From contig OZ223272.1 of the NCBI GenBank assembly GCA_965140585.1, positions 128,001-192,000 on the forward strand: a stretch of DNA of 64,000 nt, given 5' to 3'. The DNA is from Spirochaetia bacterium (GTDB taxonomy: Bacteria; Spirochaetota; Spirochaetia; UBA9216). Both the position numbers and the translations under genes were made by a program. Of this stretch, positions 2,208-14,011 are shown in pieces; within the stretch, counting starts at the first letter, position 1, and each line of letters begins with the position of its first letter. The notes beneath the pieces were generated by a model, which was given only the letters and a program-made list of their open reading frames with translations, was not told the DNA's origin and did not search any database.

Positions 2208-2286
2208 ATTTTTCACTCCTGTTAAAACGAGGATAATACAGTATATACGACAGCACTATGTCATAGTTAAAAATTATTATTGTTTT

Positions 2287-2946
2287 TTATAACTCATCAT
2301 GTTCGAGAAAGGAATAATAGCCCTTAGTATTAAAGATGATATGATCAAGAAAATTAAGCCTTAACATATCAGATGCATTCTGAAGCATTCTGGTGACTCT
2401 AAAATCTTCATCACTTGGTAAAATTTCACCTTGCGGATGATTATGTGCAACAATTATGGCAGAAGCCCTTTCAGATAAGACATCAGCAAAAACTTCCCTG
2501 GGATGTACTTGCGTTTTGTTAACAAGGCCAATGGTGACAACACGAATACTCATTACTTCATGAGCCCCATTTATGGAAACACAAAGAAAATGTTCCTGTT
2601 TTCTGTCGGAGTAATGCTGTATTAAAGGCAGAACATCTGCCGGGAACTTAATTTTCAAACCTTCAGGTTTAATTCGTCTTCTTACAAACTCAAAAGCTGC
2701 ATCTATTGTTGCAGCCTTCGCAGAACCAATACCATTAACATCAATTATATCATTAGCCGAAAAAGAAAGTCCTTTTTCATCGATAATTTTAACGATTTTA
2801 CTGGATAATGATAGAACATCCTCATTTTTCGATCCCTTACCAAGAATAATTGCAAGTAATTCCTGGTCTGATAATGATGATGAGCCGCTATGAAGAAGTT
2901 TTTCTCTGGGACGATCGGCAAGTGGAATATCTTTTATTCGTTTCAT
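2287..2946 (-). CDS. radC: RadC (JAB/MPN domain) protein
   Basis: RPREKL, LSDQELLAI, HPREVF, AHNHPQG...SDED, DHII motifs. Confidence 0.93.
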   Translation of the reverse strand: MKRIKDIPLADRPREKLLHSGSSSLSDQELLAIILGKGSKNEDVLSLSSKIVKIIDEKGLSFSANDIIDVNGIGSAKAATIDAAFEFVRRRIKPEGLKIKFPADVLPLIQHYSDRKQEHFLCVSINGAHEVMSIRVVTIGLVNKTQVHPREVFADVLSERASAIIVAHNHPQGEILPSDEDFRVTRMLQNASDMLRLNFLDHIIFNTKGYYSFLEHDEL

Positions 2947-2947
2947 T

Positions 2948-3967
2948 TCAGGAGGAGATTTTTTCAGGAATAAAGATTATATCTTTGCTGCTGTAGACTT
3001 CCACCACCTGTCCTGATAGATAGGAATCATCAAATATTACAAAATTATCACCTGAGCCAAGAGAACTTTTAAAGATAATCCCGTCATACCCGTTATCTTT
3101 GATTAATTCGCAGAGGTATTGTGTAGGTAAGTACTCAAAATCTTTCATATAAGGAAGAACCGGGATAGAAAGTGCTACACTAAGGTGATTAAGAAATGGA
3201 ATAAACTCAGTATAAATCATAGATAAATCATCATGCACGAATGGAGAAATGCTTTTTCCAGGGTTTCTTAAATCAATCATTTTTAAATTATTATCAAGAG
3301 AAAAAGAAGCTACATATACAATTTCGCTCTTATACGGTCTGGTCTCTGAAATAGCAGTAGTTACATCACTTGCACCATAGAAATATGAGATGCCCTTCGG
3401 GTTTGCCCTCCCATCTGGGGCTTTTCCTTCAGGAGGTTTTCCCATCTTATCTATCGAGTATGGACTACCATCGCCTTTCAACCTGGCTCTATAAATATAA
3501 TCAGGAATACAACTCTTATCTAATTCCAAATACCCGATAAGCAGTATTAATTGTTCCTGCTCTATTTTCTTCTGAGGGAAGAAGCGATTCCGATGCCGTA
3601 ATTCCCTGGAAAACTCTTCCCAATTTTTAATAAATTGACTTTCGACATTTTCAGGGGCTTTTACTTTCAATTGAATCAGGTTTTCATCATCCATTATACT
3701 GGTTAATAATTGCTCAACAACAGTACTATCTAAAGATTCATTAAAGATATGCCAGTCTTCCTGAAGTAAACCTGCAAGAGGAAGGCCGTCCTCTGAAACT
3801 TGATAAAAATCAATGACGGGTAGAAACAGATCCATCAATTCAACTGCATTTATAAATGAAACTGAGGCTGTACTATTGCAAAAAGAGCATGTGCCCCTGT
3901 TAGTCGAAAAGGTTTCGATATGTCTTTTGATAAAACTATCGTTAAAACAATCAGGACAGCATAACAC
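2948..3967 (-). CDS. RES-domain protein (NAD+-consuming ART fold) with N-terminal Cys-rich region
   Basis: CCPDC...CSFC at N-terminus; YRAR, GRANPKGISYFY, AISETRP, YLPTQYLCE, GYDGIIFKSS. Confidence 0.85.
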   Translation of the reverse strand: MLCCPDCFNDSFIKRHIETFSTNRGTCSFCNSTASVSFINAVELMDLFLPVIDFYQVSEDGLPLAGLLQEDWHIFNESLDSTVVEQLLTSIMDDENLIQLKVKAPENVESQFIKNWEEFSRELRHRNRFFPQKKIEQEQLILLIGYLELDKSCIPDYIYRARLKGDGSPYSIDKMGKPPEGKAPDGRANPKGISYFYGASDVTTAISETRPYKSEIVYVASFSLDNNLKMIDLRNPGKSISPFVHDDLSMIYTEFIPFLNHLSVALSIPVLPYMKDFEYLPTQYLCELIKDNGYDGIIFKSSLGSGDNFVIFDDSYLSGQVVEVYSSKDIIFIPEKISS

Positions 3968-3968
3968 C

Positions 3969-4922
3969 TTAGTTTATTCCCCTTAGATATTCAGCAACCA
4001 GTTCAACATGGTGCTGCATCGAAAGCTTTTTTACATATCCTAAACCTGGGAAATGTTTATGTTCGAAAAGTTTGAGATATTCACCAAGAGCCCTGGATTT
4101 AAAAATCTTTGAATCAGGTCTGTAAACTTCATCAACCAGTTTCTGCAGGGCTTCAAGAAACTTACCGCCGGGATTGGTGGGAGAATCGGTCTGATCTGAT
4201 ATGAAATGATAAATAAACATGTCATCATCCTTATCATCATCAATATAAGTCAGATGAATTGCCACAGCATAGGCGGGTCCTCCGGAATCACGGAATTCAT
4301 CTCCCACAATCAGAAAATCACCGAAGCCATCCATCCCTTCATCCGGAAAAGTAATGTGCAGATCAGAGAAATGCTCGAACGGAGGATACTGGGAGTTTTT
4401 CTTCTGTATACGAAACCCGTCCCGAATGAGAATTCGCTGTACACCTTCCTGTTTAAACTGTCTCTGATAAAGCTTGCTTGTCTGTTCCTCAATAAAAACA
4501 TGTCTCTTGATACTCATATTCCCATCAACGACTTTTACCAAATCCTTACCGTTGGTATAACCGTAATGGATTAATGATACATTGCGGTGCTGTTTACCCT
4601 CAAGAAATCCAGTTAGTTCATCTAATTCTGATCCGGCATGTAAAACAAAACCAAGTGATGTAACTTTATTATCCTTCATAATTTCATCAAGTAAATCATC
4701 GGGAATAATCTCATGGGAGCTGTAATCGCCAACCTGCGGATTAACTACAAGTGTATGCACAACTCCATTTTTTACCAACTCGGATACGGCTTTTAACAAG
4801 GCCGTCGAACTGAACTTTACAGGTTCGATTATGGGATGTATGTAATTTTCCTTAAAAAAAGCAGCATTACCCCGAAGCAGAATCAGCTCATTCTGCTTTC
4901 CTCTTAGAAACGGATAGTACAT
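3969..4922 (-). CDS. sce7725-family protein
   Basis: MYYPFLRGKQNEL start, PIIEPV, GFGDFLIVG, GGPAYAVAIHLTY, HFPGLGYVKKLSMQHH end. Confidence 0.85.
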   Translation of the reverse strand: MYYPFLRGKQNELILLRGNAAFFKENYIHPIIEPVKFSSTALLKAVSELVKNGVVHTLVVNPQVGDYSSHEIIPDDLLDEIMKDNKVTSLGFVLHAGSELDELTGFLEGKQHRNVSLIHYGYTNGKDLVKVVDGNMSIKRHVFIEEQTSKLYQRQFKQEGVQRILIRDGFRIQKKNSQYPPFEHFSDLHITFPDEGMDGFGDFLIVGDEFRDSGGPAYAVAIHLTYIDDDKDDDMFIYHFISDQTDSPTNPGGKFLEALQKLVDEVYRPDSKIFKSRALGEYLKLFEHKHFPGLGYVKKLSMQHHVELVAEYLRGIN

Positions 4923-4932
4923 TAATTACTCC

Positions 4933-5826
4933 CTATTCTGATATAACAATTTTTCTTACCTCTGCATCATATTTATCTGATAAAGCATTCAGCTTTTGTA
5001 AATTACCTGCATTATTAATAATATAAGCATACAAAGATTCCGGAGCTCTATTCAGTAAGGTTTCAATTGCAGATTTCTTATCACGATTTTTAAGAACATC
5101 AAAGGTTTTGTCATGGATGATTTCAGGATCCTGACGGCAGAACATTGCCCTGCATTCATCGAATATCCGGGTATTGGGAACATCAGGAACGTAGCCGTAA
5201 ATACTTTTTATAACTTCAAGATACTCATTCTTTCTTAAAGAATTGAACAGAAATTCGGGTCTAACATTATGTTTATTGGAGATAGATATTTTATGGATTT
5301 GAATCGTACAATCATCTGAAATACATAATATTCCAACATGAGCGGGCAATTTCCCATCCAGTTGCTCAGTCTGAGCCTGTGAGGTAACAACATATATATT
5401 ATCAAAAACATTACCATAGGCTTCAATCTGATCATCAAGCCGCCTGAAAGAATCAAACTGCGATTTAATTTCGTAGACAGTTGAAGTACCGTTTAAAATA
5501 ACAACATCAGCCCGGCGCTTTCCTACACGGAATTCGTTAAGCATCCAAGAGTTCTGAAGTGAATGTCTTTTTAATAGCAGTTCCCTGGTAATTTCATTTT
5601 TATAAAGATATTCATTTCGGTAATTCAATGAAAGAAGGCTATAAATATCGTTTAGAAATGAACGAAACGACTGTGAAAGATCGATTCTATTTATCAGATT
5701 GCTGTTTTGAAGCACTTCATACAGATAATCGGAGAATCCATTCTCAGCTATCTTATCAAGAACAAGGGGAGTAAAAATTCGGCTTAGCGGGTTTAAATAA
5801 CAGGGATCAACGACTAAATCAGACAA
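4933..5826 (-). CDS. sce7726-family protein (PD-(D/E)xK nuclease-like)
   Basis: YRNEYLYKN, EFRVGKRRAD, VYEIKSQFD, RLDDQIEAY; TTG start with AGGAGG SD. Confidence 0.85.
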   Translation of the reverse strand: MSDLVVDPCYLNPLSRIFTPLVLDKIAENGFSDYLYEVLQNSNLINRIDLSQSFRSFLNDIYSLLSLNYRNEYLYKNEITRELLLKRHSLQNSWMLNEFRVGKRRADVVILNGTSTVYEIKSQFDSFRRLDDQIEAYGNVFDNIYVVTSQAQTEQLDGKLPAHVGILCISDDCTIQIHKISISNKHNVRPEFLFNSLRKNEYLEVIKSIYGYVPDVPNTRIFDECRAMFCRQDPEIIHDKTFDVLKNRDKKSAIETLLNRAPESLYAYIINNAGNLQKLNALSDKYDAEVRKIVISE

Positions 5827-5877
5827 TTACCGGCCTCCTTTTGTTCAATGATAATTACGATGCTGTTCTTTATTTAA

Positions 5878-5886
5878 ATTATACCA
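5878..5886 (-). promoter_or_regulatory. Extended -10 promoter for the sce7726 operon
   Basis: TGGTATAAT on the minus strand in the gap between hsdS and sce7726. Confidence 0.55.
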
Positions 5887-5893
5887 TCACTAA

Positions 5894-7204
5894 TTACTTT
5901 TTCGATCTTTTAGTTGATTTCTTAACAGCCTTTAATTCTGCTTCCATCTTTGCCTTCTCTTCCATTATTCGTTCCAGCAGTCTCTCAGCGGGTTCATCAT
6001 TTGGATCCTGCGGCACAAGCTCGCCCCGAAAAGCCTTGGCAAGAACAGACTGAGAAAGCTTATCAACTCTTGACTTTGCTTCATTGTAATGAGCTTCGAC
6101 CTTATCCGCCAGAGCAAAGAGTTTATCAACCTGTTTCACGATTTCTTTTTGTTCCTCGAGGGGAGGGAGATAAATTGACGTATCCATTACTATTGCTTGA
6201 TTAATTTTTGGCATACTTCCAGCAGTGCCAGTAGCATTACTTCGAAAATAATCAAGAGTTTGATAACTTTGTAGCGACAAGACAAGAAAAGAAGGTAATA
6301 CTAATTCTTTATTAGCTTTAACTTTCATCATAAGATCAGGATATATAAATTCATAACTGTTTCCGTTATAGATTGCTGAAATACCCACATAATTAATTGA
6401 ATTACTTCGCTGTATTAAAATATCATCTTTTTCTAACCATAAATAAGAATCATTTTGTATATCTTCATCAATATATTTAAAACAAGAACTATCAAATGTT
6501 CCTGATGTTGTCGCAGTAAGGCTAAGTGATTTAACTGGAGTTTCATACTTCACTGCAGTTGGGGAATATCCATTTCTAGGTTTGCCAATGATGATATCAA
6601 TAAGTGGTACTACTTTAGATTCTACCTCGGTATGCTCTTCCCGCCACTTCTCAGTTAGCCTTCCAGTTACTGCTGCTGTCAAGACTGATTGCCGGTAGCG
6701 TTTCATAATAACAGGAACCTTCTCCAACCGCTCTTTCACTGTCTCAATCCGTGGCATAATAGAATCAAGCTTGGCTACAATACGTTTTTGCTCGTTAAGG
6801 GGAGGGAATAAAATCGAAAAACCTACTAAATTTTCAATTGTTACCTGTGGTTGTGCAGTGCCTGTAACAATAGTGCTTTTATCACTATTGTATAATGAAT
6901 AATACAAAAACTTATTACAATTATAATACTCAGCAGGTAATTCTATAATAAGAGAATTAGATGTTATGTAACACTTTGGAGGTGAAATATTTATAACACC
7001 ACTATTTGCTCCACGACAAGATATTAATACTTGGGGTTTTTCATATAGGTATTCATTATAATACCCAATAATCGAGTTGGCGCCAAAAACTGGATATTTA
7101 CCAATATCATATAGTTGATTTTTAGACAAACCTTTCCCGTAAGCAATATTTGCTATCTTAGTAATTGCGACTTCAACCCATCCGCTCGGAAGGCCCTCAC
7201 TCAT
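5894..7204 (-). CDS. hsdS: Type I RM specificity subunit
   Basis: Two TRDs, each followed by PPLxEQxxIV; C-terminal AFRGELVPQDPNDEPA. Confidence 0.93.
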   Translation of the reverse strand: MSEGLPSGWVEVAITKIANIAYGKGLSKNQLYDIGKYPVFGANSIIGYYNEYLYEKPQVLISCRGANSGVINISPPKCYITSNSLIIELPAEYYNCNKFLYYSLYNSDKSTIVTGTAQPQVTIENLVGFSILFPPLNEQKRIVAKLDSIMPRIETVKERLEKVPVIMKRYRQSVLTAAVTGRLTEKWREEHTEVESKVVPLIDIIIGKPRNGYSPTAVKYETPVKSLSLTATTSGTFDSSCFKYIDEDIQNDSYLWLEKDDILIQRSNSINYVGISAIYNGNSYEFIYPDLMMKVKANKELVLPSFLVLSLQSYQTLDYFRSNATGTAGSMPKINQAIVMDTSIYLPPLEEQKEIVKQVDKLFALADKVEAHYNEAKSRVDKLSQSVLAKAFRGELVPQDPNDEPAERLLERIMEEKAKMEAELKAVKKSTKRSKK

Positions 7205-8646
7205 TCAGTTTCCTCCGCCTCAATCTCATCCAGTATCAGCTGTAGCTCATCAACACAGGCGCTAAGTTCGGTAATGGCATCCGCAACCAATAGCTGCGGG
7301 TCGGGCAGTGAATTGGGATCTTCAAGGTTTTCATCCTTCAGCCAGCTAATATCGAGGTTGAAGTTACGATCTTTAATCTGTGAATAAGCAAATTTTCTGA
7401 ACCGGCCTTCTTCGCCAAGATCTTTACGCCTGGACTGCCCGTTTGGATCTTCGCCATAACAGACTTCAAAGTCCTCAAACATGGCCGGAGTAAGAGGTCT
7501 GTCCTTCTTTGTTACTCCGGGAATATTGGTGCGGCAGTCATATATCCAGGTTTCTTCTGTCTTAAGTCCTTTCTGAAAGAAGAGAACGTTTGCCTTTACT
7601 CCCTGACTGTATGGGGTGAATGTGCCATTGGGAAGACGCAGTACCGTATGTACATTGCAGTCTTCCATCAGGTACTTGATAACATCTCCTGCCTGGTCTG
7701 CAAAAAGAACGTTATCCGGTAAAACCATAGCAGCCCGTCCGCCGGGTTTTAGAATAGTAACAACATGCTGAATAAAATTAAGCTGCTTGTTACTGGTGCT
7801 CACTGTAAAATCATCACGGACCGGGGCCTGGTTTGCTCCCTTTGTTCCAAAAGGAGGATTAGTCAGAATACAGTCATAGCGTTCGCCTCGATCCGGCTCA
7901 TAGATGCTGTCTCCAAGATAGATCTGCGGTTCCAGCCCATGCAGAAAAAGATTCATTAGAGCAAGTCTCCGCGGTCTGGGAACCAGTTCCTGACCATAGT
8001 AGGTTTCTTTTTTTATTCTAAGCACGTCCTTACGTTCGAGAGCACCTTTGGTTATTTCCATAAGCCACTCATAAGCAGCCATCAAAAATCCTGATGTCCC
8101 GCAGGCTGGGTCACATATCTTGTAATCTTTGGCAGTTCTTGGGTCAGGCTGCATAACCTTTATAATAGATTGAATAAGAGGCCGCGGGGTAAAATACTGC
8201 CCTGCCCCCTTCTTGCCTTCTGCCGCGGACCTCTCAAGCAGGCCCTCAAAGGCTGCACCCTTTACATCAACATCCATTGAAGACCAGTCTTCTTCATCTA
8301 TCATATTGATAACGCGTTTAAGGTTTACCGGATTGGTAAAACGGGGCATAGCCTGTGTAAAAATATCTCCAAGAAGGCCGGATTGTCTGCTTAAAGCCCT
8401 TAGAATCTGAGAAAAGGCATCAAGCAGCTCGGTACCAGATTTTTCAGTAAAGGGTGTCCAGGAACAATCAAGAACTATTTTCTCTTTGTTCTCTTCATAT
8501 TCAACTTTAGATAGGTCAATTCCCTTCTCATGTGACATCTTTAGAAACATAAGATAGGTAAGCTGTTCGATATAATCACCGTAATCAATACCGTCATGGC
8601 GTAGGGTACTGCAGAACCCCCAGAGTTTATTTACTACATCCGACAT
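7201..8646 (-). CDS. hsdM: Type I RM N6-adenine methyltransferase
   Basis: GQYFTPR, DPACGTSGFL, NPPF motifs; 4-bp overlap with hsdS. Confidence 0.95.
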   Translation of the reverse strand: MSDVVNKLWGFCSTLRHDGIDYGDYIEQLTYLMFLKMSHEKGIDLSKVEYEENKEKIVLDCSWTPFTEKSGTELLDAFSQILRALSRQSGLLGDIFTQAMPRFTNPVNLKRVINMIDEEDWSSMDVDVKGAAFEGLLERSAAEGKKGAGQYFTPRPLIQSIIKVMQPDPRTAKDYKICDPACGTSGFLMAAYEWLMEITKGALERKDVLRIKKETYYGQELVPRPRRLALMNLFLHGLEPQIYLGDSIYEPDRGERYDCILTNPPFGTKGANQAPVRDDFTVSTSNKQLNFIQHVVTILKPGGRAAMVLPDNVLFADQAGDVIKYLMEDCNVHTVLRLPNGTFTPYSQGVKANVLFFQKGLKTEETWIYDCRTNIPGVTKKDRPLTPAMFEDFEVCYGEDPNGQSRRKDLGEEGRFRKFAYSQIKDRNFNLDISWLKDENLEDPNSLPDPQLLVADAITELSACVDELQLILDEIEAEETE

Positions 8647-8659
8647 GTTAATTCCTTAT

Positions 8660-11329
8660 TTAAGCTGCAAGAGTTGTGTTTATTTCATTGATCAATGATT
8701 CAAAATCAGTCCCAAAAATCTGTTTTGCCTTGGATAATCCGCCGTGACGTTCAAAAACCGGCATTATTTCAAAATCTTCACTTGAAATAGCAAGGTTTTC
8801 TATCAAGTGCTCTTTGATATAGGCAAGCCATTCAAGCTGTTCGTCATTAAAAGCATGGGCATTAACAATTTTACCGACAGCCTTTTCTACCCTTTCCTTT
8901 GCAGAAAACAACAGATCTTCCTCATTGGAGGCATGTTTTATCATTGATATGATATCGGCAAGTGGTTTTTTATAAACCAACTCATGCCCTCGCTGCAGAT
9001 CTCTTTCTGAAAAATCACTCTTTTTGAGCTTATCACGCAGCTCATCAAGAGCATCAGTATTCCATCCGGATGGTCTGGAAAGAAGGATCTCAATTGCGTC
9101 TATATGTTCCGGATTATTCCGTACAAACTCATCAAAGAGCTTCAGATAATCTTCAGGTTTTTGGTAATCTCCACCAACGCGGAATAAAACTTCATGCTCA
9201 ACTGTGTCTTTGATATCATATCCCTTTAAAAAGATCTTCCCCGGACGAGGATAATCTTCCAGCAGCTTCTGAAAATCCTTGTTCCTGAGAAGGTTCATGG
9301 TTTCAGTAAAGTTATTTTTAAGATTTTCTTTTAACCCATCGGCAAAAGCCTTTATATCACCGTCCGGAATATATTTCGAAAAAGCTTCCCGTGCTTCTGC
9401 ACCCATGTTGTTCTCAATCCGGCGCAGCCTTTTTATAAGCCTGCTGGTATTATAATCTCTGTCACGGTTATCATAGATACGTTCAATGATTTCGCTTATC
9501 GGAACTGTTTCACTCTGGATGTTGACCTTGAAATCGGTTGTGTTTTTAAAATATTCAATCAAACTGCCGTCAAAGCAATCGAAGATAGTAAACTTTTCCT
9601 TATGGATTTCAGGACATTTGCGGGTTCCCCGCCCCAGCATCTGAACCCACATGATACGTGATTTGACGACACGCATAAATACAACCATTTCTATAGCCGG
9701 AATATCGACACCTGTTGTAAGCATATCAACTGTTACGACAATCTTAGGTTCGGGACGGTTTCGGAACTGACGAATCTTCTGTAATGGACGGTCAACAGTA
9801 GGGCTGCCAGTTATCTTCATTACAAAATCATCACCCTTCCCAAAGATTTCTTTGCATGTATTCACTACTTCATCGGCATGCGAAACGTGCGGCAGGTCAT
9901 TTACAGCAAAGATCAGCATTTTAGGAAAGCGATGGTATTTTTGTTCATGCTCATCTGTATAGACTTTGATAGCAGTGATTATTTTTCTGATACTGTCAGG
10001 CGAGGTGATTTTCTGCTCTATCTCACCGGCACTGAATTCCCGTTCATCCTCCAGCTCATCAAGCTGTTCGGCACCAGTTACCGTATCAATTTCACCAACC
10101 AGTTCACCCTCTTTCAGAAAAGCACCGTTGATATGGATATCTGATTTAATCTTGACCGCATCGTAATCAACTAAATGCCCCTGAAGAACAGCCTGCTCAG
10201 TGCTGTATGTAAACACCTTGTTCTTAAACAAAGCCAGAGTATGAGTTGCAGGAGTAGCTGTAAGCCCAATCTTAACCGCATCAAAATAATCCATGACATA
10301 CTTCCAGCGCCCCGTCTCTTTAGCAGAATAGCCTCGGTGGCATTCATCGGCAATGATTATATCGAAAGTATTAATAGGTATATCCAGCTTGTTTGCTTCT
10401 ACATCATACTCAAAATCGCTTACGGCTTCTTTACCCAAAAGGTTTATAGACATCCTCTGAATTGTAGAGACGTAGATGAATGCATGCTTTTCCTGGGGAT
10501 TTGTTAGATAGGCTTCCGGTAAGACCTGCGGATCAAACTTTGTATCTTCATCAAGATCTTCACGTTTAAATTTCTGACTGTAAACCTCATAATCCTGATT
10601 TAATTTTAAGCCTTCCGGTGTTTCAAAGGCACAGATAGCCGAAACTGCCTGTGCCGCAAGGGCCCGCCTATCAACAAGAAAGAGAATACGCTTTGCATAA
10701 CCTGATTTAAGTAAACGGTAAATTGATGAGACCAGAGTGAATGTCTTACCTGTACCGGTAGCCATTGCGATTAGCATAGTTTTTTTGCCGTTGCAGATTG
10801 CATTTTCAATAGCCTCAACTGCCTCAATCTGGTAAGGACGCAGCCTGGATATTTCTGAAACCGGCCGTTCATCAAACCATTTTTCAGACTGTTCAATATC
10901 ACGGTTGTATTTATCAAGCAGCGCCTGCGGAGAATGAAAATCTGCTATCTGATAAGAGTTATTTTCTCTCTTTCTTACATCAAGATGAAAAATAAGCTCT
11001 CCGTTTGTTGAATATAAAAAAGGAACCTTATATTCCCTCCACTGACCGACTGTCTCAGGGACACCCTTAGAATAGCGCTTTGCCTGTTCAAGAACATTTT
11101 CAGCCCCGACAGATAATTTCTTCGCTTCTATAATTCCAAGCAGCTTTCCCTGCACAAAAAGCGCATAATCAGCAGGGCCAGTCTCAGTTGGATATTCTTC
11201 AACAGCATGGGCAGATAAAGCGGATATGTCCATTCCATTGAAGAATGGCACAATTTCCCAGTTAAGCAGTGGCGAAGTTAGTTTCGTATCTATTCTTTTC
11301 TTTCGGGTTTTAGCTTCTGATTCATTCAT
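8660..11329 (-). CDS. hsdR: Type I RM restriction subunit
   Basis: GPADY...IEAKK nuclease motif, MATGTGKT, DECHR, QMLGRGTR helicase motifs. Confidence 0.95.
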   Translation of the reverse strand: MNESEAKTRKKRIDTKLTSPLLNWEIVPFFNGMDISALSAHAVEEYPTETGPADYALFVQGKLLGIIEAKKLSVGAENVLEQAKRYSKGVPETVGQWREYKVPFLYSTNGELIFHLDVRKRENNSYQIADFHSPQALLDKYNRDIEQSEKWFDERPVSEISRLRPYQIEAVEAIENAICNGKKTMLIAMATGTGKTFTLVSSIYRLLKSGYAKRILFLVDRRALAAQAVSAICAFETPEGLKLNQDYEVYSQKFKREDLDEDTKFDPQVLPEAYLTNPQEKHAFIYVSTIQRMSINLLGKEAVSDFEYDVEANKLDIPINTFDIIIADECHRGYSAKETGRWKYVMDYFDAVKIGLTATPATHTLALFKNKVFTYSTEQAVLQGHLVDYDAVKIKSDIHINGAFLKEGELVGEIDTVTGAEQLDELEDEREFSAGEIEQKITSPDSIRKIITAIKVYTDEHEQKYHRFPKMLIFAVNDLPHVSHADEVVNTCKEIFGKGDDFVMKITGSPTVDRPLQKIRQFRNRPEPKIVVTVDMLTTGVDIPAIEMVVFMRVVKSRIMWVQMLGRGTRKCPEIHKEKFTIFDCFDGSLIEYFKNTTDFKVNIQSETVPISEIIERIYDNRDRDYNTSRLIKRLRRIENNMGAEAREAFSKYIPDGDIKAFADGLKENLKNNFTETMNLLRNKDFQKLLEDYPRPGKIFLKGYDIKDTVEHEVLFRVGGDYQKPEDYLKLFDEFVRNNPEHIDAIEILLSRPSGWNTDALDELRDKLKKSDFSERDLQRGHELVYKKPLADIISMIKHASNEEDLLFSAKERVEKAVGKIVNAHAFNDEQLEWLAYIKEHLIENLAISSEDFEIMPVFERHGGLSKAKQIFGTDFESLINEINTTLAA

Positions 11330-11371
11330 TTATAGACTTTTCCTATCTGGTTGAAATACAAACCAAAAAGA

Positions 11372-11400
11372 ATTATACCAAATATTCATCAGATATTGAA
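11372..11400 (-). promoter_or_regulatory. Sigma70-type promoter of hsdRMS
   Basis: TTCAAT-N17-TATAAT with TG extension. Confidence 0.5.
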
Positions 11401-11406
11401 ATCAAA

Positions 11407-11454
11407 AATCCTCTAAAATCGCTCCCCGCCCTTACCTGATATAATTCGTGGCCA
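11407..11454. repeat. 48-bp direct repeat, copy 1 (downstream of GxxExxY gene)
   Basis: AATCCTCTAAAATCGCTCCCCGCCCTTACCTGATATAATTCGTGGCCA; 46/48 identical to copy 2. Confidence 0.9.
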
Positions 11455-11476
11455 CCCCTCTCCCCCTATAAGAGGC

Positions 11477-11839
11477 CTAAACAACAAGACGCTTCCATTC
11501 AAGGCTTGAGACCTGAAAGTTTACAAGTAAACCAAGTTTGCAGCCTGAAATATGCAGATAATTGATAAGCTGGGCAGTGTGTTCAGGGGCCAACGTCTTT
11601 ACAGACTTGAGTTCTATAATTACTTTGTTTTCTACAACAAGATCAGCAAAATACTCACCTACCGTTTCCCCCCTGTATTTAACTGTAAACGGAACATTGT
11701 ACCCCGTACTTAAACCAGCAGCCTTTAGCTCATAATAAAGCGCATTATGATAGCACTGCTCAAGCAGCCCGGGGCCAAGCCCACTGTGAACTGCCATACA
11801 GCAGCCGATAATTTGAAAAGAAAGCTCTTTGTGAACCAT
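11477..11839 (-). CDS. GxxExxY protein (PD-(D/E)xK-like)
   Basis: LGPGLLEQCY, ADLVVE...IELKS, AQLINYL, GLLVNF; start placed at ATG 11839 after AGGAGG. Confidence 0.92.
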   Translation of the reverse strand: MVHKELSFQIIGCCMAVHSGLGPGLLEQCYHNALYYELKAAGLSTGYNVPFTVKYRGETVGEYFADLVVENKVIIELKSVKTLAPEHTAQLINYLHISGCKLGLLVNFQVSSLEWKRLVV

Positions 11840-11842
11840 ACC

Positions 11843-11973
11843 GGTCCTCCTTCGTTTTCTTTCCGTAAATACGAAGTTCACTTTTTCGGAGGTCAAGGAT
11901 TTGCCGAAGGCAAACTTGCTGCAGTCCTTGACCGGAGAAAAATGAACAGTAAAATTAAAAGAACGAAGGAACC
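11843..11973. other. Long imperfect inverted repeat (hairpin) upstream of GxxExxY
   Basis: Nested arms 11848-56/11962-70, 11876-87/11937-47, 11891-99/11925-33; inner TTTGCC-GAA-GGCAAA. Confidence 0.8.
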
Positions 11974-12010
11974 ATATTGAATAGCCTGGCCCTCCCTTCT
12001 CCCGCTCCTC

Positions 12011-12058
12011 AATCCTCTAAAATCGCTCCCCGCCCTTACCCGATAAAATTCGTGGCCA
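12011..12058. repeat. 48-bp direct repeat, copy 2 (upstream of GxxExxY gene)
   Basis: AATCCTCTAAAATCGCTCCCCGCCCTTACCCGATAAAATTCGTGGCCA. Confidence 0.9.
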
Positions 12059-12110
12059 AGGATTCTACAAATTAATCACCAAATACTACCCGCTATAGCC
12101 AGATACCTGC

Positions 12111-12149
12111 TTGCATCAACAATATTGTCTGACTAAAATCAGATAATAT
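12111..12149 (+). promoter_or_regulatory. Promoter with overlapping palindromic operator for the MarR-GNAT gene
   Basis: TTGCAT-N17-TAAAAT; ATATTGTCTGA-N6-TCAGATAATAT inverted repeat spans the -10. Confidence 0.6.
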
Positions 12150-12996
12150 GAATAATATTGAGATTATGCGGGAATTCAACCGCACCGTAACCCGAAGCAT
12201 TGGTATATTCAACGGACAGTATCTCGGCCGGCCAAGGCCTCTGGCTGCCTCGCGATTAATCTATGAAATAGGCACACAAGGGGCGGAGATACGCTCACTG
12301 AGGGACAGGCTCGGCGTTGATTCAGGCTACATGTCACGCCTGCTTCGTATGCTTGAAAAGGAATCACTGATTAATATTGAACCGTCTCCAAAGGATCGAA
12401 GAATTCGGCAGGTCCAGCTGACCGGAGCGGGAATTCTTGAACTGAAGGAACTGAACAGACTTTCAGATCTTGAGATGACAACATTACTGAAAAAACTGCC
12501 TGAAAAAAAACAGCAGCTTCTTACCGAAGCAATGAAAACAGTCGAACAGCTGCTTGAAACAGCTGCTGTTCAATTGATAAGAGTCGAAGAATCTGATACC
12601 CGGGCCCAGAAAGCTCTTGAATCGTACTATTCTGAACTTTCAGACAGATTCGGGAGGCACTTCGATCCGGGACAAATGGAGAACGGTATATTTTTTATTG
12701 TGGAGCTTCATGGAGAAACAGTCGGATGCGGAGCTGTGGTGATGTATCCTGATTTTGCCGAGGTGAAAAGAATGTGGGTAGCTCCGTCATGCAGAGGCCG
12801 GGGAATCGCTTCAAAAATACTTACACAGCTTGAAGAAGAAGCCCTCCGGGCCGGACAAAAAACCGTCCGGCTGGATACCAACGATAATCTGAACGAAGCA
12901 AAGGCTATGTATCGCAGATACGGTTATCATGAAATTAAAAGGTATAATGACAATCCATTCGCTCAGCATTTCTATGAAAAGGTTATTGCGCCCTGA
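12148..12996 (+). CDS. MarR-family wHTH fused to GNAT acetyltransferase
   Basis: DSGYMSRLL...DRR wHTH; EVKRMWV, RGRGIA, RLDTN, YNDNP GNAT motifs. Confidence 0.88.
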   Translation: MNNIEIMREFNRTVTRSIGIFNGQYLGRPRPLAASRLIYEIGTQGAEIRSLRDRLGVDSGYMSRLLRMLEKESLINIEPSPKDRRIRQVQLTGAGILELKELNRLSDLEMTTLLKKLPEKKQQLLTEAMKTVEQLLETAAVQLIRVEESDTRAQKALESYYSELSDRFGRHFDPGQMENGIFFIVELHGETVGCGAVVMYPDFAEVKRMWVAPSCRGRGIASKILTQLEEEALRAGQKTVRLDTNDNLNEAKAMYRRYGYHEIKRYNDNPFAQHFYEKVIAP

Positions 12997-12997
12997 A

Positions 12998-13540
12998 CTA
13001 TGCTAAAACTCTCTCCCGGTAGATAATATCCAGAGCTATTTCAATGGCCTTGGTTATCGCGACCCCGCAGGATGGATGTTTGATATTGTACTCATTTCCG
13101 TTTTCATTATCCATGCTAGGTACAAAATTCAGCTCCTCGGGCATATCCCAGCTGAAAGATTCAAGCTCAGACTCCAGTATGTCCTCACAGAGCGTAGTGC
13201 TCAGTAAATCCTTAAATCTTGCGACAAATTCCTCAGTAAGCTCCCCGAGCTTTTGATCACGGGCGGTTTCATCAGCATTCTTTTTCAAAGATTCCGCTCC
13301 GAATTCCAGCCCCAACGCTACTCCGGCGGCAGTAACAGCACCGCAAAGCTGCCCATGCCTCATCCCTCCGCCCATAGCGGCCATTATTTTAAGAGCCATA
13401 GACTCATCAAGACCGATATAAGGCGCTATCCCGCACAGACAGGCCTGTGAACAGTGATTATTAAGGCTCTTTGTCTGGAGCCCCAGGCTGCATGCCTTAT
13501 AAATTAATTCAGCTTTTTTACTCTCGACTAAATTTTCCAT
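12998..13540 (-). CDS. C-GCAxxG-C-C family putative redox protein
   Basis: CSQA, GGGM..GQLCGAVT, TTLC, C-terminal Cys. Confidence 0.8.
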   Translation of the reverse strand: MENLVESKKAELIYKACSLGLQTKSLNNHCSQACLCGIAPYIGLDESMALKIMAAMGGGMRHGQLCGAVTAAGVALGLEFGAESLKKNADETARDQKLGELTEEFVARFKDLLSTTLCEDILESELESFSWDMPEELNFVPSMDNENGNEYNIKHPSCGVAITKAIEIALDIIYRERVLA

Positions 13541-13545
13541 CTTAA

Positions 13546-13595
13546 AATCCTCTTAAATCTCTCCCAGCCCTTTCCAAATATACAATTCGTGGCTA
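13546..13595. repeat. Diverged third copy of the GxxExxY-flanking repeat
   Basis: AATCCTCTTAAATCTCTCCCAGCCCTTTCC...AATTCGTGGCTA, same orientation. Confidence 0.75.
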
Positions 13596-13600
13596 AACCA

Positions 13601-14011
13601 CTATTTCCCCATATTCTCAAGAAAAGCGTACAAATCAGGGGCACGTTTTTTAAGGTTGATCACATTAAGATTCGTATCTGTCCAGCCGTGCATGGTCTTA
13701 CCGGTGGCAAGCAGTTCACCGTCATCCTTGCGTCTAACCTCATAGGCCATGGCAAATCTTGCTATCGTAAGTTTTTCAACAATACACTTAACGATGATTC
13801 TTTCACTGTATTTTGCGCCAGCCATGTAATCGCATTCAAGATGCGAAAGTGGAGTCATAATTCCCTCAGATTCTATTCTCGTATACGGGTATCCGGCTTT
13901 CTCAAGCATATCAGTTCGGGCAGCTTCAAACCATATGGGATATACAGAATGGTGAACGACACCCATCTGATCAGTCTCAGCATATCTAACAATTATTTCA
14001 GTTTCTGTCAT
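13601..14011 (-). CDS. Acyl-CoA thioesterase (YbgC/4HBT hotdog family)
   Basis: VRYAETDQMGVVHHSVY..WFE.AR. Confidence 0.9.
   Translation of the reverse strand: MTETEIIVRYAETDQMGVVHHSVYPIWFEAARTDMLEKAGYPYTRIESEGIMTPLSHLECDYMAGAKYSERIIVKCIVEKLTIARFAMAYEVRRKDDGELLATGKTMHGWTDTNLNVINLKKRAPDLYAFLENMGK

Follow-up and report, generated by a model that had tools for sequence, protein, structure and literature searches.

A candidate three-gene defence cassette between hsdS and radC of a spirochaete type I restriction-modification operon

The gop-beta-cII system of P4 is reported to protect against lambda and P1, with gop being toxic without beta (Rousset 2022, PMC9122126), and a phage gene, orf184, is reported to trigger its cell-death activity (Silas 2023). 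Here we compare this and other described systems with a locus in a 64,000-nucleotide (nt) stretch of a Spirochaetia bacterium (contig OZ223272.1, positions 128,001 to 192,000; hereafter the window, numbered from its first letter). At this locus three co-oriented genes, encoding an sce7726-family protein, an sce7725-family protein and a RES-domain protein (hereafter the trio), lie between the hsdS gene of a type I restriction-modification (RM) operon and a radC gene. By analogy, the trio is probably a P4-type Beta/cII core fitted with an aRES-type effector, acting through abortive infection by NAD+ depletion.

Three further groups of published systems bear on this comparison. TIM-B systems are defined around PF14350, and their effectors include RES, GNAT and cII-type restriction endonuclease (REase) proteins; the same report suggests that TIM-B acts constitutively as a negative regulator and is related to deazaguanine transglycosylases (bioRxiv 10.64898/2026.10.19.760177). 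The aRES proteins are described as converting NAD+ to nicotinamide and ADPR-1P in E. coli and conferring phage protection (Osterman et al., bioRxiv 10.64898/2026.01.28.702374); that report calls them stand-alone and "not operonically associated". Defence genes are also described as embedded in RM operons, with PrrC in EcoprrI as the precedent for a backup role (Payne et al., bioRxiv 10.1101/2024.01.29.577857).

The trio resembles gop-beta-cII (for which Ghisotti 1990 is cited as well as Rousset 2022) in having a nuclease-fold protein of the cII/sce7726 family and a TIM-barrel partner; the two barrels agree in N-terminal motif, in topology and in their closest structural neighbour. Both systems also place a toxic third gene (here predicted to be so) beside the barrel gene, and both are carried by mobile elements. 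The effectors differ, P4 Gop being a 133-residue (aa) protein and the trio's a dissimilar 339-aa RES enzyme. Moreover, sce7725 goes undetected by the 'beta' and PF14350 models, and the trio's genes all run one way, starting with the nuclease gene, whereas P4 cII is convergent.

Other likenesses are partial. The trio's RES protein has the PF18870 plus RES architecture, size range and expected NAD+ chemistry of aRES, but aRES are reported to be stand-alone, while this one is fixed beside two partners. As in TIM-B systems, a barrel extended at its C terminus by a hairpin and helices stands beside an effector gene, and RES and GNAT effectors swap in both; however, PF14350 misses sce7725, and the TIM-B REase gene is described as convergent (P4 type) whereas the trio's is first and co-directional. 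Like PrrC in EcoprrI, the trio is cargo nested in an hsd operon, with other cargo in relatives and a possible backup role, but its slot is bounded by hsdS and a conserved radC, and most trios are not RM-linked. Finally, RES-Xre and MbcTA also consist of a RES-domain, NAD+-degrading toxin held by a protein partner. The trio instead lacks an Xre or MbcA-type antitoxin (neither sce7725 nor the neighbouring RadC has a helix-turn-helix family match), its effector has an additional Zn-ribbon N-terminal domain, and its partners are a TIM barrel and a nuclease fold.

The trio's parts and the pairing of TIM-B with RES are thus already in print. What is modestly new is that the trio forms a fixed, co-directional unit, that its barrel is predicted to contact RES, and that radC is a conserved gene of this type I RM lineage. 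If the trio defends as predicted, it places a stand-alone NAD+-depleting effector (aRES) under P4-type Beta/cII control, turns sce7725/sce7726, annotated by name only, into a large and broad defence family, and offers a tractable system for asking what Beta/TIM-B proteins do, a question unanswered even for P4. The locus also documents an hsdS-radC cargo slot and a recurrent linkage of radC with type I RM.

A conserved three-gene unit and its protein families

All genes of the locus are on the minus strand. The first trio gene, sce7726 (4933-5826), encodes 297 aa from a TTG start, the second, sce7725 (3969-4922), 317 aa, and the third, the RES gene (2948-3967), 339 aa; radC (2287-2946) follows and encodes a 219-aa RadC-like JAB protein. 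The four genes are separated by 10, 1 and 1 nt, the last being the distance from the RES stop to the radC start. The original prediction for this locus, made from the window's letters, had described four co-oriented, closely spaced, AT-rich genes behind hsdS, and coordinates and composition confirm this: GC content over the four genes is 0.35-0.41, compared with 0.42-0.49 beyond the island that contains them. Its four family assignments were likewise confirmed by profile matches.

Comparison across genomes defines the unit. We scanned an sce7725 alignment against one genome per species and recovered 80 loci (numbered here with the prefix L) from many phyla. The order sce7726-sce7725-RES, on one strand and with spacing of a few nt, recurs in 77 of them, and the three without a full trio (L025, L034, L067) are cut by contig ends. 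Even a distant sce7725 member (31% identical, L171) keeps the full trio. In contrast, radC follows the trio in six to seven of the 80 loci and is absent from 73, and trios without radC occur on one plasmid each of Moraxella and Shinella. The unit is the strictly conserved trio, not a quartet. Two copies are decayed: RES is split into 87-aa and 244-aa open reading frames (ORFs) at L023:6876-7892, and sce7725 is a 37-aa ORF at L034:71-184.

Sequence evidence places sce7726 in the PD-(D/E)xK (REase-fold) P4 cII family. The protein matches NF033832 at 2.7e-51 (174.1 bits, cut-off 70) and, partially, the 'cll' profile of the PADLOC system Rst_gop_beta_cll at 8.4e-23 (profile positions 16-146 of 265). 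P4 cII itself matches NF033832 at 2.5e-44 and is named an sce7726-family protein in RefSeq, and BLASTP aligns the two proteins at 34% identity over 88 aa (1e-15). The nuclease core that the original prediction had pointed out, E...AD...EIK, corresponds to E98, D107, E119 and K121, each at least 97% conserved in 68 homologues. Our literature search returned no study of sce7725 or sce7726 function by title or abstract.

The RES protein combines a Zn-ribbon N-terminal domain with a RES domain, matching PF18870 (HEPN_RES_NTD1) at 1.4e-6 (29.2 bits, cut-off 27.4) and PF08808 at 9.4e-15 (55.4 bits). With these two domains and a length within 300-600 aa, it falls within the computational definition of aRES (the aRES paper prints the RES accession as PF00808). 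Cysteines C3/C4, C7, C27 and C30 are at least 97% conserved, as are R160, R162, R187, N189, Y197, E208, R210, S241, Y279, Y284, E287, S301 and N308, a set that includes a putative active site. From its domains and its likeness to aRES we predict that the RES protein is an NAD+-degrading effector. It has no similarity to P4 Gop and no match to the PADLOC 'gop' model.

The barrel protein matches NF033831 at 3.3e-92 (309.5 bits, cut-off 60) and belongs to a family of 5484 protein clusters with 55-60% identity across phyla. Its AlphaFold2 model is a TIM barrel in which strands 221-228 and 234-241 form a beta-hairpin that precedes three helices. Several features connect this protein to P4 Beta, weakly to moderately at the level of sequence. 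Both carry the N-terminal motif YYPxLRxxxxE, and hhalign with a distant-member profile gave an E value of 2.3e-4 (probability 44%, 131 columns). Their AlphaFold models follow one order of elements, including an [FY]GD strand, a low-confidence GG loop, the beta-hairpin and the three helices, and the top BFVD neighbour of both models is the same protein, A0A5J6TRS2, well separated from the rest (2.2e-7 and 1.7e-11). Among Atlas clusters that bear a Pfam family, Beta_protein is the nearest to sce7725, at 0.76, which we take as a lead only. On sequence and models together, sce7725 is probably a divergent P4 Beta/TIM-B protein.

A0A5J6TRS2 is an uncharacterised 379-aa protein of Gordonia phage Powerball, which suggests that phage-borne members of the sce7725/Beta barrel family exist. 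In two further loci, GNAT takes the place of RES: on an E. faecium plasmid (L088:4306-6513) and in a record filed as Listeria phage (L170:3108-5513), an sce7725 gene (~1e-101) is followed by one for a 170-aa GNAT acetyltransferase. The gene ahead of sce7725 in both encodes a protein not recognised as sce7726 (the E. faecium protein compared with sce7726 gave a non-significant E of 1.0). By sequence, these arrangements look like an effector-swapped version.

Predicted contact, proposed mechanism and alternatives

In keeping with the partnership that the original prediction had proposed, complex prediction supports binding of sce7725 to RES. The pair scored 0.63 (runs 0.49, 0.67 and 0.63), compared with 0.00 for the best of three controls. 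As calibration, 58 of 80 solved complexes attain that mark, against 2 of 110 mismatched pairs, figures that are approximate here, our own alignments having been used. The runs agreed in at least 66% of contacts, with a pLDDT of at least 83 for the partner. The predicted interface joins invariant sce7725 segments 214-218 and 290-298 to invariant RES residue F243 and its neighbours 244-246.

We lean, with some reserve, towards reading 2948-5826 as a three-gene defence cassette in the hsdS-radC slot, comprising a cII-type nuclease fold, a Beta/TIM-B barrel and an aRES-like enzyme, in which a restrained RES protein would abort infection by cleaving NAD+. In the uninfected cell, the TIM-barrel sce7725 would bind the RES enzyme and hold it inactive, as P4 Beta restrains Gop. 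We infer that infection would release the enzyme. Free RES would then cleave NAD+, by analogy with aRES to nicotinamide and ADPR-1''-phosphate, and the loss of NAD+ would stop growth and abort the infection. The nuclease-fold protein sce7726 could serve as sensor, regulator or second effector. The abortive-infection candidate put forward originally, an NAD-targeting RES protein with two partners, is thus supported for the trio, but RadC does not belong to it.

Several results weigh against this proposal. Beta-like ancestry of sce7725, though still likely, is made less secure by weak hhalign probabilities with larger alignments (2.4% with 24 against 22 rows, 5.9% with 191 against 118 rows), by the lack of any BLASTP match between sce7725 and Beta, and by the failure of PADLOC 'beta' (E up to 10), PD-Lambda-2_C and Pfam PF14350 (0.01) to detect sce7725, while P4 Beta scores 8.2e-188 on PADLOC 'beta' and also matches PD-Lambda-2_C. 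Foldseek of sce7725 against PDB and VIA wide returned a flat list of unrelated TIM barrels, from which we drew no function. A search of the RES profile against PDB sequences gave no significant solved RES toxin (ParT, E 0.9). PADLOC v2, proposed as a check on the locus, recognised only the cII-like gene and neither sce7725 nor RES. Moreover, aRES act alone, which, if the analogy holds, leaves this RES protein's need for partners unexplained, and sce7725 may have a catalytic role instead of simply inhibiting, because its 71 near-invariant columns include many His, Asp and Lys. Within the barrel protein, residues 169-219 include the most conserved stretch (N176 to Y218), which has an AlphaFold pLDDT below 50.

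Genomic neighbourhoods add little in either direction. Taking the nearest ORF on each side gave 126 ORFs at 75 loci, after removal of five ORFs that came from near-duplicates (L030, L033 and L064), and no control set was used. The neighbours are heterogeneous (5 HsdS, 5 integrases, 3 ResIII and 3 N6_N4 methylases among them), so that this uncontrolled census neither shows nor denies the enrichment in defence islands that the original prediction had asked about. The same census bears on the suggestion that the cassette guards or backs up the RM system. PrrC in EcoprrI gives that suggestion a precedent, but with HsdS making up 5 of 126 neighbours and most trios not RM-linked, an obligate guard role is unlikely.

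The original prediction also treated the four genes, with a co-expressed RadC, as one self-contained functional system. The 1-nt gap between RES and radC favours this, as does the presence of RadC (68-78% identity) after RES in L009, L012, L023, L051, L105 and L108 (478 nt away in L051). Comparative data nevertheless split radC from the trio. Besides its absence after the trio in most loci, RadC is reduced to a 43-aa stub in L008 and L018 with the trio intact, the same RadC (61-75% identity) stands straight after hsdS with no trio in eight loci, and in distant RM relatives radC (34-38% identical) lies 24-33 nt upstream of hsdR, at seven loci. A single four-gene system is therefore very improbable. 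A different alternative keeps the trio whole but sees in it chiefly a toxin-antitoxin (addiction) module stabilising the island or plasmid, and not an anti-phage system. RES toxins are classical toxins of such modules, the trio is found on plasmids and in an island, and the predicted binding of sce7725 to RES resembles a toxin-antitoxin pair. However, the related P4 system and aRES proteins protect against phages, the trio's RM slot also holds defence-type cargo, and a 317-aa TIM barrel so rich in near-invariant columns is unlike a labile antitoxin; we judge this alternative rather unlikely.

In another alternative, the sce7725 barrel is an active, transglycosylase-like enzyme. Its product, or a covalent mark, would control the system, or else sce7725 would pair with sce7726 in modification-dependent restriction, and RES would supply a second arm. 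Against this, the tRNA-guanine transglycosylase (TGT) matches of sce7725 are tied with those of unrelated TIM barrels, no deazapurine synthesis genes were seen in the island, though no search was aimed at them, and the predicted contact fits regulation by contact equally well. Such an enzyme is unlikely in our view. We give a slightly smaller chance to a more elaborate version, in which the barrel enzyme would keep RES latent through a nucleobase-type modification or small product, the cassette would be a true second line of defence, set off once a phage has disabled the type I enzyme, and RadC would be an accessory RM subunit that processes DNA or protein.

RadC and the type I restriction-modification operon

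The trio lies behind a type I RM operon (5894-11329, minus strand) made up of hsdR (8660-11329), hsdM (7201-8646) and hsdS (5894-7204), all with Pfam matches. Reading upstream from the trio, the gene order is hsdS, hsdM, hsdR and then a PDDEXK_3 gene, and the hsdS stop codon, at 5894-5896, is 67 nt upstream of sce7726. At the other end, RadC (UPF0758) matches PF04002 at 2.8e-35 and the PRK00024 equivalog at 2.9e-56 (190.5 bits, cut-off 180). It carries HNHPQGEILPSDED, a JAMM-type motif with the HxH...S..D metal arrangement.

Relatives of the RM operon account for radC. Near-identical RM systems (HsdM 80-89%, HsdR 69-79%) lie upstream of the trio in L009, L012, L018 and L023, all of which are among the loci with radC or a radC stub. 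We also scanned metagenomes with HsdM, which gave 80 loci, and examined the 31 closest (L090-L120), of which 19 were informative. Eight of these 19 have radC straight after hsdS, at a gap of -4 to 78 nt, and one has it 275 nt after hsdS. In three, radC comes after other cargo of 1.3-2.1 kb, and in two it comes after the trio. One more has a trio cut by the contig end, and the remaining four have no radC. In operons lacking the trio, the end of hsdS and the beginning of radC overlap by 4 nt.

Combining these observations, radC is the conserved terminal gene of an hsdRMS-radC lineage, with or without the trio, and is not part of the trio core. We propose that radC is co-transcribed with the trio solely through the place where the trio was inserted. 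Our literature search on RadC and type I RM found no description of a radC-hsd operon. Loci in which radC and type I RM are linked are L091, L095, L098, L102, L113, L114 and L119-L137. The genome also holds a second radC-like stretch (G000:C2:254232-254345, 69% DNA identity over 114 nt), so the island's radC is probably an extra copy.

The place between hsdS and radC is a slot of which the trio is one of several occupants. Other cargos found there in relatives are a Schlafen/AlbA_2 protein, an AAA_21 protein with RloB, and an IS200-type transposase. On this arrangement, the trio would be cargo that a mobile hsdR-hsdM-hsdS-radC operon carries in its hsdS-radC interval. With 31 HsdM rows, the tree requires four changes in trio presence, two of them forced by well-supported branches, and the window falls in a clade with 98% support together with four trio-less operons. 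When the trio was concatenated for a second tree (68 rows, with 16 of 83 loci omitted as incomplete), the nearest relative of the window's trio was L003, which has no RM system, and a single 8-row clade took in five of the six RM-linked trios, L009 being placed elsewhere. Together, the two trees imply that the trio entered or left the hsdS-radC slot more than once. Aligning the hsdS/radC and RES/radC junctions in search of an insertion scar revealed no duplicated sequence, the only part in common being the 5' coding region of radC.

A second slot, between hsdM and hsdS, is empty in the window. In relatives it holds YhcG/DUF1016 PD-(D/E)xK nucleases or RhuM, being filled in L093, L096, L097, L101 and L110, and also at L108:8701-9744.

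Expression signals and island boundaries

The signals ahead of sce7726 leave two routes to its transcription. The original prediction gave the operon its own promoter and an AGGAGG ribosome-binding site, and both sequences are present. A promoter-like site at 5878-5905 (minus strand; TCGAAA, 16 nt, TG-TATAAT; a 10/12 consensus match), with TGGTATAAT at 5886-5878 on that strand, occupies the hsdS-sce7726 spacer and overlaps the 3' end of hsdS. It is the best match on the minus strand, but such sites are no more frequent in this AT-rich stretch than in shuffled sequence (22 found, compared with 18.5 +/- 5.1), which leaves an independent promoter plausible. Between hsdS and sce7726 we found no terminator-like site, which makes transcription running on from hsdRMS just as possible. 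The AGGAGG (5839-5834, minus strand) stands 7 nt ahead of the TTG at 5826, a start codon supported by homologues that align from residue 1.

The trio, radC, hsdRMS and the PDDEXK_3 gene together form an island of about 9.85 kb (2270-12120) that is missing from a genome of the same genus (G001). There, 38 nt separate flank 1479-2269 from flank 12121-14000, which implies that 2270-12120 is one acquired block. We noticed neither direct repeats nor an integrase at the island ends, 2270 and 12120, and no tRNA lies within the window. On one side, the radC stop is 17 nt from the island edge. At the far end, the PDDEXK_3 gene (11477-11896) has several DNA copies of 67-72% identity in the same genome (contigs C1, C5 and C7) and further copies in relatives.

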